Source of the DNA: Escherichia coli
Lineage (GTDB): Bacteria; Pseudomonadota; Gammaproteobacteria; Enterobacterales; Enterobacteriaceae
Direction: 5' to 3' (one strand)
Assembly: GCF_041248615.1 (NCBI RefSeq)
Contig: NZ_CP158426.1
Length of the DNA: 64,000 nt
Of this stretch, positions 7,522 through 16,525 are shown one piece after another (within the stretch, counting starts at the first letter, position 1; every line of letters begins with the position of its first letter). A program made the translations under genes and the position numbers. A model generated the notes under the pieces. That model saw only the letters and a list, made by a program, of their open reading frames with translations. It was not told where the DNA came from and did not search any database.

Positions 7522-8724
7522 ATGCAAAGTGTTGATGTAGCCATTGTTGGTGGCGGCATGGTGGGGCTGGCGGTTGCCTGCGGCTTACAGGGGAGCGGCT
7601 TACGCGTTGCCGTACTGGAGCAGCGCGTACCGGAACCTCTGGCGGCGGATGCACCACCACAACTGCGCGTTTCGGCTATCAATGCCGCCAGCGAAAAATT
7701 ACTCACCCGTCTTGGCGTCTGGCAGGACATTCTCTCTCGTAGGGCCAGTTGTTATCACGGTATGGAAGTGTGGGACAAAGACAGTTTTGGTCACATTTCG
7801 TTTGACGATCAAAGCATGGGCTATAGCCATCTTGGGCATATCGTTGAAAACTCAGTGATTCACTACGCGCTGTGGAACAAAGCGCAGCAGTCGTCAGATA
7901 TCACTCTGTTGGCCCCCGCAGAATTACAGCAGGTCGCCTGGGGAGAAAATGAAACTTTCCTGACGCTGAAAGATGGCAGCATGTTAACGGCGCGTCTGGT
8001 GATTGGCGCGGACGGTGCTAATTCCTGGTTGCGCAACAAAGCAGATATTCCGCTGACTTTCTGGGATTATCAGCATCACGCGCTGGTAGCGACCATTCGC
8101 ACGGAAGAACCGCATGATGCGGTGGCGCGGCAGGTTTTCCATGGCGAAGGCATTCTGGCCTTTTTACCGCTTAGCGATCCGCATCTTTGCTCAATTGTCT
8201 GGTCACTGTCGCCAGAGGAAGCGCAGCGGATGCAGCAGGCAAGTGAAGATGAATTTAATCGCGCGTTAAATATCGCTTTTGATAATCGCCTGGGCTTATG
8301 CAAGGTTGAGAGCGCGCGTCAGGTGTTCCCACTGACGGGGCGTTATGCGCGCCAGTTTGCCGCGCACCGTCTGGTGCTGGTGGGCGACGCCGCGCATACC
8401 ATTCACCCGCTGGCGGGGCAGGGAGTAAATCTCGGCTTTATGGATGCTGCAGAGCTGATTGCTGAACTGAAACGGTTGCATCGTCAGGGGAAAGACATCG
8501 GGCAGTACATTTACCTGCGCCGGTATGAGCGTAGCCGCAAGCACAGTGCGGCGCTGATGCTGGCTGGTATGCAGGGATTCCGCGATCTGTTTTCCGGTAC
8601 CAATCCGGCGAAAAAACTGCTGCGTGATATTGGTTTGAAACTGGCCGACACGCTTCCTGGCGTTAAACCACAACTTATCCGCCAGGCAATGGGATTAAAC
8701 GATTTGCCTGAATGGCTGCGTTAA
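7522..8724 (+). CDS. ubiI: 2-octaprenylphenol hydroxylase (VisC)
   Basis: 400-aa ORF MQSVDVAIVGGGMVGLAVACGLQ..., FAD-binding GXGXXG motif. Confidence 0.95.
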   Translation: MQSVDVAIVGGGMVGLAVACGLQGSGLRVAVLEQRVPEPLAADAPPQLRVSAINAASEKLLTRLGVWQDILSRRASCYHGMEVWDKDSFGHISFDDQSMGYSHLGHIVENSVIHYALWNKAQQSSDITLLAPAELQQVAWGENETFLTLKDGSMLTARLVIGADGANSWLRNKADIPLTFWDYQHHALVATIRTEEPHDAVARQVFHGEGILAFLPLSDPHLCSIVWSLSPEEAQRMQQASEDEFNRALNIAFDNRLGLCKVESARQVFPLTGRYARQFAAHRLVLVGDAAHTIHPLAGQGVNLGFMDAAELIAELKRLHRQGKDIGQYIYLRRYERSRKHSAALMLAGMQGFRDLFSGTNPAKKLLRDIGLKLADTLPGVKPQLIRQAMGLNDLPEWLR

Positions 8725-8767
8725 AAATTTCTCTTCTGCTGTTTATTTGATACCCATCACACTTTCA

Positions 8768-8797
8768 TCTCCCGGTTTTTTCGCCGGGAGATTTTCC
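8768..8797 (+). terminator. rho-independent terminator after ubiI
   Basis: hairpin tctcccgg-ttttttcg-ccgggaga followed by T-rich tract. Confidence 0.7.
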
Positions 8798-8799
8798 TC

Positions 8800-9170
8800 A
8801 TTTGAAATAAACTAATTTCACCTCCGTTTTCGCATTATATTTTCTAATGTCATTATTTTTTGATTTAGTGTTTTTTGACATTTTTTTAGCTCTTAATATT
8901 GCCTTATTCAAATTAGCTTTCTAATGGCATCATCTTTATATAGAAACTGGTGTGTTTTTTGGTTTTTTATTCTGTCGCGATTTTGGCGTTTTTTAACCAT
9001 AAGCTAATGTGATGATCAATTTTACCTTATGGTTAACAGTCTGTTTCGGTGGTAAGTTCAGGCAAAAGAGAACGATTGCGTTGGGGACCGGGAGTGGCTC
9101 CGATGCTGGGTTTCGTGGTGATAATTTCACCATGAAAAGTTGTCAGCCCCGCTTATTCAATGAGGACAAG
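8800..9170 (+). promoter_or_regulatory. gcvTHP promoter/regulatory region (AT-rich; GcvA/Lrp/PurR sites expected here)
   Basis: long AT-rich spacer upstream of gcvT; specific binding sites not individually resolved by eye. Confidence 0.4.
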
Positions 9171-10265
9171 ATGGCACAACAGACTCCTTTGTACGAACAA
9201 CACACGCTTTGCGGCGCTCGCATGGTGGATTTCCACGGCTGGATGATGCCGCTGCATTACGGTTCGCAAATCGACGAACATCATGCGGTACGTACCGATG
9301 CCGGAATGTTTGATGTGTCACATATGACCATCGTCGATCTTCGCGGCAGCCGCACCCGGGAGTTTCTGCGTTATCTGCTGGCGAACGATGTGGCGAAGCT
9401 CACCAAAAGCGGCAAAGCCCTTTACTCGGGGATGTTGAATGCCTCTGGCGGTGTGATAGATGACCTCATCGTCTACTACTTTACTGAAGATTTCTTCCGC
9501 CTCGTTGTTAACTCCGCCACCCGCGAAAAAGACCTCTCCTGGATTACCCAACACGCTGAACCTTTCGGCATCGAAATTACCGTTCGTGATGACCTTTCCA
9601 TGATTGCCGTGCAAGGGCCGAATGCGCAGGCAAAAGCTGCCACACTGTTTAATGACGCCCAGCGTCAGGCGGTGGAAGGGATGAAACCGTTCTTTGGCGT
9701 GCAGGCGGGCGATCTGTTTATTGCCACCACTGGTTATACCGGTGAAGCGGGCTATGAAATTGCGCTGCCCAATGAAAAAGCGGCCGATTTCTGGCGTGCG
9801 CTGGTGGAAGCGGGTGTTAAGCCATGTGGCTTGGGCGCGCGTGACACGCTGCGTCTGGAAGCGGGCATGAATCTTTATGGTCAGGAGATGGACGAAACCA
9901 TCTCTCCTTTAGCCGCCAACATGGGCTGGACTATCGCCTGGGAACCGGCAGATCGTGACTTTATCGGTCGTGAAGCCCTGGAAGTGCAGCGTGAGCATGG
10001 TACAGAAAAACTGGTTGGTCTGGTGATGACCGAAAAAGGCGTGCTGCGTAATGAACTGCCGGTACGCTTTACCGATGCGCAGGGCAACCAGCATGAAGGC
10101 ATTATCACCAGCGGTACTTTCTCCCCGACGCTGGGTTACAGCATTGCGCTGGCGCGCGTGCCGGAAGGTATTGGCGAAACGGCGATTGTGCAAATTCGCA
10201 ACCGTGAAATGCCGGTTAAAGTGACAAAACCTGTTTTTGTGCGTAACGGCAAAGCCGTCGCGTGA
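9171..10265 (+). CDS. gcvT: glycine cleavage system aminomethyltransferase T
   Basis: ORF track 9009..10265; start refined to [13 protein letters not shown] (364 aa). Confidence 0.95.
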
Positions 10266-10288
10266 TTTACTTTTTTGGAGATTGATTG

Positions 10289-10678
10289 ATGAGCAACGTA
10301 CCAGCAGAACTGAAATACAGCAAAGAACACGAATGGCTGCGTAAAGAAGCCGACGGCACTTACACCGTTGGTATTACCGAACATGCTCAGGAGCTGTTAG
10401 GCGATATGGTGTTTGTTGACCTGCCGGAAGTGGGCGCAACGGTTAGCGCGGGCGATGACTGCGCGGTTGCCGAATCAGTAAAAGCGGCGTCAGACATTTA
10501 TGCGCCAGTAAGCGGTGAAATCGTGGCGGTAAACGACGCACTGAGCGATTCCCCGGAACTGGTGAACAGCGAACCGTATGCAGGTGGCTGGATCTTTAAA
10601 ATCAAAGCCAGCGATGAAAGCGAACTGGAATCACTGCTGGATGCGACCGCATACGAAGCATTGCTAGAAGACGAGTAA
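10289..10678 (+). CDS. gcvH: glycine cleavage system lipoyl-carrier protein H
   Basis: 129-aa [20 protein letters not shown]...; the first codon in the ORF track is TTG, ATG at 10289. Confidence 0.95.
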
Positions 10679-10796
10679 CGGCTTTATTCCTCTTCTGCGG
10701 GAGAGGATCAGGGTGAGGAAAATTTATGCCTCACCCTCACTCTCTTCGTAAGGAGAGAGGTTCACAATTCACTGCACGTTTCAGGAACCATCGCTC

Positions 10797-13670
10797 ATGA
10801 CACAGACGTTAAGCCAGCTTGAAAACAGCGGCGCTTTTATTGAACGCCATATCGGACCGGACGCCGCGCAACAGCAAGAAATGCTGAATGCCGTTGGCGC
10901 ACAATCGTTAAACGCGCTGACCGGCCAGATTGTACCGAAAGATATTCAGCTTGCGACCCCGCCGCAGGTTGGCGCACCGGCGACCGAATACGCCGCACTG
11001 GCAGAACTCAAGGCTATTGCCAGTCGCAATAAACGCTTCACGTCTTACATCGGCATGGGTTACACCGCCGTGCAGCTACCGCCGGTTATCCTGCGTAACA
11101 TGCTGGAAAATCCGGGCTGGTATACCGCGTACACTCCGTATCAACCTGAAGTCTCCCAGGGCCGCCTTGAAGCATTGCTCAACTTCCAGCAGGTAACGCT
11201 GGATTTGACTGGACTGGATATGGCCTCTGCTTCTCTTCTGGACGAGGCCACCGCTGCCGCCGAAGCAATGGCGATGGCGAAACGCGTCAGCAAACTGAAA
11301 AATGCCAACCGCTTCTTCGTGGCTTCCGATGTGCATCCGCAAACTCTGGATGTGGTCCGTACTCGTGCCGAAACCTTTGGTTTTGAAGTGATTGTCGATG
11401 ACGCGCAAAAAGTGCTCGACCATCAGGACGTCTTCGGCGTGCTGTTACAGCAGGTAGGCACTACCGGTGAAATTCACGACTACACTGCGCTTATTAGCGA
11501 ACTGAAATCACGCAAAATTGTGGTCAGCGTTGCCGCCGATATTATGGCGCTGGTGCTGTTAACTGCGCCGGGTAAACAGGGCGCGGATATTGTTTTTGGT
11601 TCGGCGCAACGCTTCGGCGTGCCGATGGGCTACGGTGGCCCACACGCGGCATTCTTTGCGGCGAAAGATGAATACAAACGCTCAATGCCGGGCCGTATTA
11701 TCGGTGTATCGAAAGATGCAGCTGGCAATACCGCGCTGCGCATGGCGATGCAGACTCGCGAGCAACATATCCGCCGTGAGAAAGCGAACTCCAACATTTG
11801 TACTTCCCAGGTACTGCTGGCAAACATCGCCAGCCTGTATGCCGTTTATCACGGCCCGGTTGGCCTGAAACGTATCGCTAACCGCATTCACCGTCTGACC
11901 GATATCCTGGCGGCGGGCCTGCAACAAAAAGGTCTGAAACTGCGCCATGCGCACTATTTCGACACCTTGTGTGTGGAAGTGGCCGACAAAGCGGGCGTAC
12001 TGACGCGTGCCGAAGCGGCTGAAATCAACCTGCGTAGCGATATTCTGAACGCGGTTGGGATCACCCTTGATGAAACAACCACGCGTGAAAACGTAATGCA
12101 GCTTTTCAACGTGCTGCTGGGCGATAACCACGGCCTGGACATCGACACGCTGGACAAAGACGTGGCTCACGACAGCCGCTCTATCCAGCCTGCGATGCTG
12201 CGCGACGACGAAATCCTCACCCATCCGGTGTTTAATCGCTACCACAGCGAAACCGAAATGATGCGCTATATGCACTCGCTGGAGCGTAAAGATCTGGCGC
12301 TGAATCAGGCGATGATCCCGCTGGGTTCCTGCACCATGAAACTGAACGCCGCCGCCGAGATGATCCCAATCACCTGGCCGGAATTTGCCGAACTGCACCC
12401 GTTTTGTCCGCCGGAACAGGCTGAAGGTTATCAGCAGATGATTGCGCAGCTGGCTGACTGGCTGGTGAAACTGACCGGTTACGACGCCGTTTGTATGCAG
12501 CCGAACTCCGGCGCACAGGGCGAATACGCGGGCCTGCTGGCGATTCGTCATTATCATGAAAGCCGCAATGAAGGGCATCGCGATATCTGCCTGATCCCGG
12601 CTTCTGCGCACGGAACTAACCCCGCTTCTGCACATATGGCAGGAATGCAGGTGGTGGTTGTGGCGTGTGATAAAAACGGCAACATCGATCTGACTGATCT
12701 GCGCGCGAAAGCGGAACAGGCGGGCGATAACCTCTCCTGTATCATGGTGACTTATCCTTCTACCCACGGCGTGTATGAAGAAACGATCCGTGAAGTGTGT
12801 GAAGTCGTGCATCAGTTCGGCGGTCAGGTTTACCTTGATGGCGCGAACATGAACGCCCAGGTTGGCATCACCTCGCCGGGCTTTATTGGCGCGGACGTTT
12901 CGCACCTCAACCTGCATAAAACTTTCTGCATTCCGCACGGCGGTGGTGGTCCGGGTATGGGACCGATCGGTGTGAAAGCGCATCTGGCACCGTTTGTACC
13001 GGGTCATAGCGTGGTGCAAATCGAAGGCATGTTAACCCGTCAGGGCGCAGTTTCTGCGGCACCGTTCGGTAGCGCCTCTATCCTGCCAATCAGCTGGATG
13101 TACATCCGCATGATGGGCGCAGAAGGGCTGAAAAAAGCAAGCCAGGTGGCAATCCTCAACGCCAACTATATTGCCAGCCGCCTGCAGGATGCCTTCCCGG
13201 TGCTGTATACCGGTCGCGACGGTCGCGTGGCGCACGAATGTATTCTCGATATTCGCCCGCTGAAAGAAGAAACCGGCATCAGCGAGCTGGATATTGCCAA
13301 GCGCCTGATCGACTACGGTTTCCACGCGCCAACGATGTCGTTCCCGGTGGCGGGTACGCTGATGGTTGAACCGACTGAATCTGAAAGCAAAGTGGAACTG
13401 GATCGCTTTATCGACGCGATGCTGGCTATCCGCGCAGAAATCGACCAGGTTAAAGCCGGTGTCTGGCCGCTGGAAGATAACCCGCTGGTGAACGCGCCGC
13501 ACATTCAGAACGAACTGGTCGCCGAGTGGGCGCATCCGTACAGCCGTGAAGTTGCAGTATTCCCGGCAGGTGTGGCAGACAAATACTGGCCGACGGTGAA
13601 ACGTCTGGATGATGTTTACGGTGACCGTAACCTGTTCTGCTCCTGCGTACCGATTAGCGAATACCAGTAA
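10797..13670 (+). CDS. gcvP: glycine dehydrogenase (decarboxylating), P protein
   Basis: 957-aa [25 protein letters not shown]... Confidence 0.97.
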
Positions 13671-13692
13671 TTCACTGATTCGACTATCTTCT

Positions 13693-13715
13693 AAAGGCGC
13701 TTCGGCGCCTTTTTA
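13693..13715 (+). terminator. rho-independent terminator after gcvP
   Basis: hairpin aggcgc-ttcg-gcgcct followed by tttt. Confidence 0.8.
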
Positions 13716-13740
13716 GTCAGATGACAAAGTACAAAAGCGC

Positions 13741-13858
13741 TCAGACAGTCCCCTCACCCCTTTGGGGAGAGGGTTAGGGTGAGGGGAACAGGCCGGCACT
13801 GGCGCGAATATTTACCCTCACCCCGGCCCTCTCCCTGAAAGGGCGAGGGGAAAAGCGT
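13741..13858. repeat. GC-rich imperfect palindromic intergenic repeat (Box C-like), two units
   Basis: cccctcaccc...gggtgagggg and ccctcacccc...gggcgagggg inverted motifs; a related gggtgagg...cctcaccc hairpin also lies between gcvH and gcvP (10710-10740). Confidence 0.5.
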
Positions 13859-13935
13859 GCCAACATTGAAGATTGAGCCAGTTTGTTAGCAATCTCAAAG
13901 ATACGTCAACGAATTAATTTTTCTCGGAAAAACAA

Positions 13936-14679
13936 ATGGCTATAGCACTTGTGACCGGTGGCAGTCGCGGCATCGGGCGGGCAACTGCATTACTGTTGGC
14001 GAAAGAAGAGTATACGGTGGCGGTTAATTATCAACAAAACCTCCATGCGGCGCAGGAAGTGGTGAACTTAATCACGCAAGCCGGTGGCAAGGCATTCGTG
14101 CTCCAGGCGGATATCAGCGACGAAAATCAGGTCATCGCAATGTTTACAGCAATCGATCAGCACGATGAACCGCTAGCAGCGCTGGTCAATAACGCCGGGA
14201 TCTTGTTTACCCAGTGCACCGTTGAAAACCTTACCGCAGAGCGAATCAACCGAGTACTTTCCACCAACGTGACGGGATATTTTCTCTGCTGCCGCGAGGC
14301 GGTAAAACGCATGGCGCTTAAAAATGGTGGCAGTGGCGGCGCTATCGTCAATGTCTCTTCGGTGGCCTCACGGTTGGGTTCGCCAGGGGAATATGTTGAT
14401 TACGCGGCATCGAAAGGGGCGATTGATACGTTAACCACCGGACTATCGCTGGAAGTCGCCGCGCAGGGGATCCGCGTTAACTGCGTGCGGCCAGGGTTTA
14501 TTTATACCGAAATGCACGCCAGCGGCGGCGAGCCTGGACGCGTCGATCGCGTTAAGTCGAACATCCCCATGCAGCGTGGTGGGCAGGCAGAAGAGGTCGC
14601 GCAGGCCATTGTCTGGCTACTAAGTGATAAAGCCTCTTACGTCACGGGAAGTTTTATCGATTTGGCGGGCGGGAAATAA
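13936..14679 (+). CDS. ygfF: short-chain dehydrogenase/reductase (SDR family)
   Basis: 247-aa ORF with TGGSRGIG Rossmann motif. Confidence 0.9.
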   Translation: MAIALVTGGSRGIGRATALLLAKEEYTVAVNYQQNLHAAQEVVNLITQAGGKAFVLQADISDENQVIAMFTAIDQHDEPLAALVNNAGILFTQCTVENLTAERINRVLSTNVTGYFLCCREAVKRMALKNGGSGGAIVNVSSVASRLGSPGEYVDYAASKGAIDTLTTGLSLEVAAQGIRVNCVRPGFIYTEMHASGGEPGRVDRVKSNIPMQRGGQAEEVAQAIVWLLSDKASYVTGSFIDLAGGK

Positions 14680-14697
14680 AACAGGGAAGTTGTCTGA

Positions 14698-14723
14698 CCG
14701 GATGCAACAAGTATTGCATCCGG
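14698..14723. terminator. bidirectional hairpin between convergent ygfF and bglA
   Basis: perfect palindrome ccggatgcaa-caagta-ttgcatccgg. Confidence 0.6.
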
Positions 14724-14735
14724 TACTTCATCGAC

Positions 14736-16196
<1,461 letters not shown>

Positions 16197-16213
16197 TTAC
16201 AGGAAATAGTATC

Positions 16214-16525
16214 ATGCAGCCAAACGACATCACTTTTTTTCAACGTTTCCAGGATGACATTCTGGCTGGGCGTAAAACCATCACCATCCGCGACGAGTCT
16301 GAATCGCACTTCAAAACGGGTGATGTGCTTCGTGTCGGGCGTTTTGAAGATGACGGTTATTTTTGCACGATTGAAGTCACCGCAACCTCAACCGTAACGC
16401 TGGATACGCTGACGGAAAAACATGCAGAGCAGGAAAATATGACCCTGACTGAACTGATAAAGGTCATTGCCGACATCTATCCCGGTCAGACACAGTTTTA
16501 TGTGATTGAATTTAAATGTCTTTAA
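16214..16525 (+). CDS. yqfB: ASCH-domain protein YqfB
   Basis: 103-aa [31 protein letters not shown]... Confidence 0.9.

Follow-up and report, generated by a model that had tools for sequence, protein, structure and literature searches.

A known BoxC pair beyond gcvP and a probable eroded one before it: a candidate protective RNA structure in the gcvTHP operon of Escherichia coli

The REP hairpin between malE and malF, reportedly described by Newbury et al. in 1987, is the classic protective 3' stem-loop in a polycistronic mRNA. Another intergenic repeat, BoxC, is also known as the PIT element, PIT standing for potential intrastrand triplex. Here we analyze a 64,000-nucleotide (nt) stretch of Escherichia coli DNA (contig NZ_CP158426.1 of assembly GCF_041248615.1; hereafter the window, with positions counted from its first letter) that contains gcvP of the glycine cleavage operon. 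The data are compatible with a model in which gcvP is flanked by two inverted pairs of BoxC (= PIT = TMECO) of different age, an intact one beyond the gene and an eroded one in the spacer between gcvH and gcvP, of which the spacer pair acts as a protective 3' structure. We give this overall reading a probability of roughly 0.78.

Both elements have a published history. Holder et al. 2015 (PMC4666352) equate the TMECO motif with the BoxC repeat of the 1990s and with the PIT element of Hoyne and Maher, and count 23 copies in MG1655 (Table 1). Two of these, TMECO 10 and 11, lie between ygfF and gcvP, 80 and 144 nt from gcvP (Suppl. Table S2), and an inverted combination of a type A and a type B unit occurs at five K-12 loci. 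Dar & Sorek 2018 (PMC5927463), in turn, include gcvH-gcvP among the 26 sites of their Table S6. For this set they report no U-tract and no detectable Rho-dependent termination, and they suggest that such messages are shielded from 3'-to-5' exonucleases in the manner of malE-malF. Their Table S3 puts the half-life of gcvH mRNA at 2.21 +/- 0.02 times that of gcvP mRNA (1.42 times in the Moffitt 2016 data) and its steady-state level at 5.03 +/- 1.33 times. As such, the repeat family, both of its copies after gcvP and the stabilizing hairpin after gcvH are already known. What is new is the proposal that the published hairpin is built from an eroded BoxC pair, together with the observation that unrelated repeats fill the same site elsewhere. 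The spacer reading thereby links two bodies of work, that on the protective structure of Dar & Sorek and that on the BoxC repeats.

The downstream pair lies in the 265-nt gap between gcvP and ygfF and consists of a type A unit with a TTA second loop (13751..13786, + strand), a 27-nt centre (13787..13813, +; AACAGGCCGGCACTGGCGCGAATATTT) and a type B unit with a CCG second loop (13814..13849, - strand). Both units match the consensus CCCTCNCCC-N3-6-GGGNGAGGG-N3-GGGNGAGGG exactly and are the sole two strict matches in the window. A BoxC profile built from the 21 other K-12 copies, with the gcvP-ygfF pair left out, recovers them by nhmmer at E=1.3e-11 and E=1.3e-9, respectively, and the two make up an inverted repeat of 40 nt with 80% complementarity. 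The minus-strand unit is identical to TMECO 10 of K-12, while the plus-strand unit equals TMECO 11 except for one base (A for G, position 6); their distances from gcvP agree with the published 80 and 144 nt, and the gap as a whole departs from K-12 by three substitutions and one indel. The arrangement of a type A (TTA) and a type B (CCG) unit on opposite strands around a 27-nt centre is likewise that of Holder et al. The downstream pair is a known, already catalogued BoxC pair (TMECO 11 and 10), like the rest of the family in its consensus, intergenic location, multiple copies and inverted A+B layout.

The first-pass annotation of this DNA had pointed to palindromic motifs in the gcvH-gcvP spacer and in two units after the gcvP terminator, all of which were located, and had noted their resemblance to the Box C family of repeats. 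That the motif is not unique to this locus is borne out, for the downstream element, by a BLAST survey of 5426 complete E. coli genomes: a 131-nt element spanning the pair is found in 5408 of them, at a median of 18 places in each (range 1-31), and only 57 of the 86,682 places are plasmid-borne. Enterobacter asburiae LF7a has 143 BoxC copies. The 27-nt centre is conserved in the K-12 pairs at fepB-entC and alx-sstT, and alignment with these two pairs reveals homology over the whole composite, including the centre and part of the left flank. Specifically, the three A+B pairs have in common the centre (AACAGGCCAGCACTGGTGCGAA..) and a left flank of the form TGACAA...AAAGCGC...GTCC (window 13721-13750 and 13787-13813). 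What is repeated is therefore a composite that measures about 140 nt, as compared with 36 nt for the motif of the literature. In the hrpB-mrcB pair the centre is shorter.

The spacer is a different matter. It spans 118 nt (10679..10796, +) between gcvH (10289..10678, +; 129 amino acids), the stabilized upstream cistron, and gcvP (10797..13670, +; 957 amino acids, stop at 13670), the less stable downstream one, and shows no difference from K-12. Within it, the 8-mer GGGTGAGG at 10711-10718 faces its complement CCTCACCC at 10729-10736 as an inverted repeat. This 8-mer occurs six times in the window against 0.95 expected, a number reached in 0 of 100 shuffles, and five of the six copies fall in the gcvH-gcvP and gcvP-ygfF gaps; the sixth, within gcvP (12215-12222), looks like chance. 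When the 24 specified positions of the published BoxC/TMECO consensus were scored by explicit enumeration over 128 kb, that is, both strands of the window, six or fewer mismatches were found at only two regions: the downstream units, with 0 and 0, and the two halves of the spacer, with 5 and 6.

The left half (10688..10719, +) reads TCCTCTTCT-gc-GGGAGAGGA-tca-GGGTGAGGA, with 5/24 mismatches and a first loop of 2 nt, and the right half (10728..10761, -) reads ACCTCTCTC-ctta-CGAAGAGAG-tga-GGGTGAGGC, with 6/24 mismatches. Both halves have the full block-loop-block layout, they stand in inverted orientation, and the centre of the pair measures 8 nt. The 3' part of the spacer (ATTCACTGCACGTTTCAGGAACCATCGCTC, 10767..10796, +), which alignments show to be conserved and which holds the gcvP ribosome-binding region, lies outside the repeat. 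In the profile search the left half is hit weakly at 10696-10718, with E=0.007, the third best hit in the 64-kb window, and the score of the best half and the two-strand sum for the spacer were each reached by 0 of 2000 dinucleotide shuffles. From the sequence, we infer that the spacer descends from a BoxC pair; the E. coli gcvH-gcvP spacer most likely represents an ancient and by now eroded pair, fixed in the species.

Of the 5426 E. coli genomes, 5425 have the spacer with at least 90% identity, and all but two of these with at least 95%. One record, L087 (E. coli VTB96775v, NZ_CP178634.1 855477-855691), has three BLAST places for the spacer and carries an inverted duplication within it, with the right unit in both orientations around a second copy of the central hairpin (hairpin 2 below); this may reflect a palindrome-mediated rearrangement or, alternatively, a fault of the assembly.

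Compared with BoxC/PIT/TMECO elements at large, the spacer shares the three-block layout, the 3-nt second loops, the GGGTGAGG block and the inverted pairing. It differs in having lost 5 and 6 of the 24 consensus positions, in its 8-nt centre as opposed to 27 nt, in yielding no BLAST repeat and in being absent from the 23 published K-12 TMECOs. Moreover, whereas typical BoxC loci are reported to be variable, the spacer is nearly invariant across E. coli and is located within an operon, at the place of a mapped RNA 3' end. An older BoxC count gives 32 copies as against 23 TMECOs and may already include the spacer. For annotation, an eroded copy of this kind means that consensus or BLAST searches would under-count old members of the family.

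Several results weigh against a BoxC origin of the spacer. BLAST finds no second copy of it, only one place per genome in 5425 genomes; the strict consensus has no match at 10688-10761, where 5 and 6 positions deviate; the right half alone is not significant by nhmmer (E=3.9); and the alignment of purine and pyrimidine tracts is ambiguous. The resemblance to BoxC that the first-pass annotation had suggested is thus exact for the downstream units and reduced, for the spacer, to that of a degenerate, single-copy relative. The same results would suit a different account, in which the spacer hairpins are local GA/CT-rich stem-loops that arose by convergence at a site where any stable hairpin is selected. 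Unrelated hairpins at the site in other taxa make selection for 'some hairpin' plausible, and simple CCCTCTCCC/GGGAGAGGG single hairpins found there in Cedecea and Phytobacter may arise or persist alone. Convergence does not, however, readily account for two halves that both have the three-block layout, 3-nt second loops and the GGGTGAGG block and are inverted as in A+B pairs, nor for the shuffle result. It also has to accommodate a divergent Escherichia with canonical TTA/TAA loops (L003, below) and canonical pairs of similar boundaries and length at the same site in several genera. Weighing these points, we consider convergence quite improbable.

The evidence from other genera comes from a comparative set of 80 GcvH-encoding loci from other species, from which the gcvH-gcvP spacers were extracted. 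In the orthologous spacer, the profile significantly recovers canonical BoxC units (E=1e-8 to 6e-4) at seven loci belonging to other genera: Enterobacter cloacae (L009), Enterobacter asburiae (L025), a Pseudocitrobacter metagenome-assembled genome (MAG; L017), two further enterobacterial genomes (L011 and L022), Buttiauxella (L028) and Pluralibacter (L047). Both units of a pair are matched in three of them (L009, L017 and L025). The hits are concentrated at the site, as 10 of the 15 significant ones in about 770 kb of fetched sequence fall within the spacer of about 120 nt. The elements mostly begin 8-10 nt after the gcvH stop and end before the conserved ATTCACTGCACGTTTCAGGAACC segment. Spacers with canonical pairs align collinearly with the E. 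coli spacer between the same flanks, and the right E. coli half is collinear with the second unit of the canonical pairs in Enterobacter and Pseudocitrobacter. Siccibacter has a BoxC-like pair at the site that stays below the profile threshold. An intermediate form is found in the divergent Escherichia L003 (a record labelled E. coli SCPM-O-B-8794), whose 113-nt spacer has TTA and TAA loops.

Common descent of the E. coli spacer with the Enterobacter pairs is, on these alignments, plausible but not proven. Repeated independent insertion is also possible, because the closer relatives Citrobacter and Salmonella carry REP or ERIC at the site and Enterobacter shows both states, a point that counts on the other side. 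REP/BIME or ERIC occupies the site in Citrobacter, Lelliottia, Kluyvera and some Enterobacter, and, according to the published sequence, in Salmonella. These repeats, ERIC (IRU) included, are unrelated in sequence to the E. coli spacer, which has no REP or ERIC motif. ERIC, sometimes beside REP, is seen in several spacers of Citrobacter, Kluyvera and Serratia (L005, L007, L016, L073), and a Providencia MAG (L077, 5394-5838) has three tandem ERIC-like copies in a spacer of 445 nt. The gcvH-gcvP site seems to attract repeats in general.

More distant genera fill the site in another manner, namely with a hairpin followed by a T-run in Photorhabdus, Providencia, Dickeya, Yersinia, Pectobacterium and Shewanella. 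Overall, 74 of the 75 spacers of at least 30 nt contain a stable hairpin, mostly within the first 35 nt after gcvH, and the five shortest spacers (Erwinia, Rosenbergiella) have none. Four loci (L020, L021, L023 and L038, from Cedecea, Phytobacter and two Enterobacter-like genomes) have only a single CCCTCTCCC/GGGAGAGGG hairpin after gcvH, which could be what is left of a BoxC unit or a simple stem-loop of the sort that gave rise to the family.

At the RNA level, the E. coli spacer folds with a minimum free energy (MFE) of -44.8 kcal/mol (z = -4.0). The core of this MFE fold consists of three hairpins and is identical to the centroid structure. Hairpin 1 (10688..10707, +) has 8 bp, a UGCG loop and about -10 kcal/mol. 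Hairpin 2 (10710..10737, +), which corresponds to the motif of the first-pass annotation, pairs AGGGUGAGG with CCUCACCCU over 9 bp around a 10-nt loop, at about -15 kcal/mol, and has no U-tract. Hairpin 3 (10740..10759, +) has 8 bp, a GUAA loop and about -10.6 kcal/mol. In a consensus fold of ten BoxC-type spacers, each of the three hairpins is retained, and some of the pairs are compensatory. Eight E. coli strains with 96.6-100% identity show substitutions only in the loop regions of hairpins 2 and 3, the stems being invariant.

The published term-seq 3' end of Dar & Sorek (PMC5927463), at BW25113 position 3042456 in Table S6, lies at window position 10741 (+), 4 nt after hairpin 2. The position was mapped in two ways, via the 60 nt upstream of the 3' end given in that table and via the coordinates of a BW25113-length genome, and the published hairpin, folded at -15.7 kcal/mol, is in line with the fold obtained here. 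In Salmonella, a published term-seq 3' end in the same spacer follows a REP hairpin, and the ratio there is 2.64. The first-pass annotation had proposed that the motifs affect mRNA processing or stability; for the spacer, the mapped 3' end and the longer life of gcvH support this.

We propose that the G-rich and C-rich blocks of the spacer, although eroded away from the consensus, would still fold into three hairpins in the gcvTHP mRNA. Following cleavage of the gcvP portion of the transcript, 3'-to-5' exonucleases would halt at the central GGGTGAGG/CCTCACCC hairpin, and the halted decay would leave a stable gcvT-gcvH message, resulting in more mRNA for H-protein than for P-protein. The mechanism would be the same as for the repeat hairpin between malE and malF. 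Like that site, the spacer has an intercistronic stable hairpin with no U-tract and a 3' end just downstream, and its upstream cistron is longer-lived and more abundant. The difference is that a REP hairpin does the work in malE-malF, whereas the gcvH-gcvP hairpin would be formed by two facing blocks of an eroded BoxC pair. We infer that the hairpin is the cause of gcvH stabilization.

Four points speak for caution here. A literature search found no mutational study linking hairpin 2 to gcvH stability; the pattern of varying loops and fixed stems comes from the small sample of eight strains; the abundance ratio of 5.0 exceeds the half-life ratio of 2.2, so that something else, such as partial termination, also contributes; and Forquet et al. 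2022 (PMC9239193) describe the equivalent site as an internal transcription termination site, citing E. coli studies. The last two lead directly to an alternative in which the 3' end stems from partial transcription termination and not from exonuclease trimming, the hairpins forming a leaky internal terminator that sets the H:P ratio. Termination would explain why the mRNA ratio is larger than the half-life ratio, and the hairpins with T-runs in the six distant genera named above are GC hairpins at the very same position. In Dickeya dadantii, about 71% termination was measured after gcvH, in what the authors see as agreement with the E. coli studies (PMC9239193). The Dickeya internal terminator has the same position as the E. 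coli structure and the same outcome, with gcvT and gcvH above gcvP.

The sequence of the two kinds of site nevertheless differs: the hairpins of Dickeya, Photorhabdus, Yersinia and Shewanella are followed by a T-run, and those of E. coli are not. Specifically, hairpin 2 is followed by CACUCUCUUCG (CACUCUCUU), which is not a U-tract, and a consensus terminator scan lists none on the + strand of the spacer, although the same scan also missed the obvious terminator of gcvP. For their set of sites, Dar & Sorek (PMC5927463) likewise saw neither a U-tract nor detectable Rho-dependent termination, and the difference in half-life that they measured is real. Termination as the sole source of the 3' end therefore appears rather unlikely to us, and trimming and partial termination may act together.

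Protection by an eroded BoxC pair can be extended to a broader idea, namely that the operon needs a stable structure after gcvH so that H-protein mRNA stays above P-protein mRNA, and that this slot is filled interchangeably across the sampled Enterobacterales, by a terminator in distant genera and by REP, ERIC or BoxC in Enterobacteriaceae. The E. coli spacer would then be a domesticated BoxC pair whose triplex consensus has decayed while its RNA stems were kept. We hold this extension tentatively, at slightly less than an even chance.

For the downstream pair, position argues differently. The intrinsic terminator of gcvP, AAAGGCGC-TTCG-GCGCCTTT (GGCGC-TTCG-GCGCC) followed by T's (13693..13717, +), is recognizable from its sequence and conserved in Citrobacter, Kluyvera and others. 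The pair begins about 35 nt beyond it and hence lies outside the terminated gcvTHP transcript. The idea in the first-pass annotation that the motifs occupy both ends of gcvP does not carry over to the mRNA, as the downstream pair is past the terminator and not at the transcript end, and the proposed effect on mRNA stability is not supported on this side. Holder et al. (PMC4666352) summarize published tests of the elements as showing no promoter or terminator activity and no in-vivo replication effect. We therefore treat the downstream pair as a dispersed non-coding repeat and claim its identity only, not a function; this, too, limits the model of two flanking elements.

A role in RNA could still be imagined if transcription reads through the terminator, in which case an imperfect hairpin of about 40 bp might stabilize the gcvP 3' end or be cut by RNase III and thereby control ygfF. 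The 203-nt region folds at -94.9 kcal/mol (z = -6.7), though any long inverted repeat folds stably and the z-score is thus no evidence of function. In most relatives nothing separates the gcvP terminator from the ygfF ribosome-binding site, a layout suggestive of a dependence of ygfF on read-through, and a consensus promoter scan found no sigma-70-like promoter upstream of ygfF. The negatives of this promoter/terminator scan are weak, since it missed the textbook gcvP terminator at 13693-13717, a failure probably due to a T-run that is taken up by the A/T extension of the stem. With a canonical terminator about 35 nt upstream of the pair, no 3'-end or processing data found for the site and published tests without promoter or terminator activity for BoxC elements, an action of the downstream pair in RNA is highly improbable.

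The history of the pair is more informative. The BoxC profile gave no hit within 500 nt after gcvP in any of 47 related species with ygfF after gcvP. In 41 of these 47, the gap measures 55-80 nt and leads from the terminator directly to the ygfF ribosome-binding site, while E. coli has about 200 nt of extra sequence there, with the BoxC pair inside. The pair, together with about 100 nt of flank, is thus an insertion unseen here in the other sampled species, including the divergent Escherichia L003. The latter is without ygfF, has about 1.4 kb between gcvP and bglA and gives no BoxC hit after gcvP. The sequence AAAAGCG stands on both sides of the pair at unequal distances, 11 nt before the unit and 2 nt after it; a mobile element akin to a miniature inverted-repeat transposable element (MITE), with a target-site duplication, is an unproven interpretation.

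Within E. coli, 3025 of 5425 genomes (56%) have an unbroken sequence that runs from the gcvP end across the pair to ygfF, and in the remaining ones (about 44%) the matching sequence ends with the gcvP terminator, just before the pair. In two genomes of this short form that were compared with window 13716-14735 (L082, 4155-4276, and L083), gcvP is directly followed by bglA, with no ygfF; about 120 nt of unrelated sequence lead into bglA, whose last codons differ as well. The short form, lacking ygfF and the pair, looks derived, because gcvP-ygfF-bglA synteny is widespread in Enterobacterales. A count of 4291 genomes covering at least 80% of the pair was rejected as a measure of polymorphism at the locus, as other A+B pairs in a genome also cover the query.

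This polymorphism bears on the possibility that the repeat acts in DNA: the C-G-G unit would fold into an intrastrand triplex when single-stranded, stall polymerases and promote rearrangement, so that the downstream pair would have given rise to the presence or absence of ygfF. Triplex formation by TMECO consensus oligonucleotides was seen in vitro by circular dichroism and nuclear magnetic resonance, and TMECO loci were more variable in sequence than controls in 56 strains (Holder et al., PMC4666352). The ygfF polymorphism, with matches that stop just upstream of the pair in all but the 3025 unbroken genomes, fits this published variability, but causation by the repeat is not thereby shown: a lineage-specific insertion beside a variable region is an association. 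According to the same paper (PMC4666352), in-vivo dimethyl sulfate footprinting at the one probed locus gave no guanine protection, and earlier in-vivo tests saw no effect on replication, transcription or conjugation. The eroded spacer pair, moreover, lies in a region that is extremely stable over 5425 genomes, though its triplex potential is reduced. We regard a DNA-level action of this kind as unlikely.

If the protective role of the spacer were confirmed by mutation, it would be the first demonstrated cellular role for BoxC, a family with no reported function in the literature searched. It would also present a clean example of unrelated intergenic repeats recruited for one job, here the tuning of subunit stoichiometry in the glycine cleavage operon. 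The literature search found no paper linking BoxC with gcvH or gcvP, the original BoxC papers (Bachellier et al.) and Hoyne/Maher 2000 being outside its reach, and the main text of Yan et al. 2018 (PMC6131387) does not mention gcv.

The gene assignments in this region follow from the open reading frames and the K-12 annotation, with the gene order reversed relative to the K-12 orientation. Besides gcvH and gcvP, they comprise gcvT (9009-10265), ygfF, which encodes a short-chain dehydrogenase/reductase (SDR) oxidoreductase (13936..14679, +), and bglA (14736-16193, -). A scan of 8500-16500 against Rfam 15, with E up to 1, found no family at its gathering score for either repeat region. Matches to microRNA precursor models, which reflect the long palindrome, and to Whalefall-1 were dismissed as chance, with 20-31 bits against thresholds of 37-105.

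Two further hairpins occur in the window. Between the convergent genes ygfF and bglA, an 11-bp hairpin with a REP-like CCGGATG core (14697-14726; ACCGGATGCAA-caagta-TTGCATCCGGT) is probably their shared transcript end. In the 50-nt intercistronic gap between the co-oriented genes ssnA and ygfM, a perfect hairpin, CCCTCTTCCC-tgc-GGGAAGAGGG (39194-39216; K-12 3020500-3020522), resembles the first two BoxC blocks, with profile values of E=0.49 on one strand and 1.8 on the other; it may be what remains of a BoxC unit or a further protective hairpin between two cistrons.

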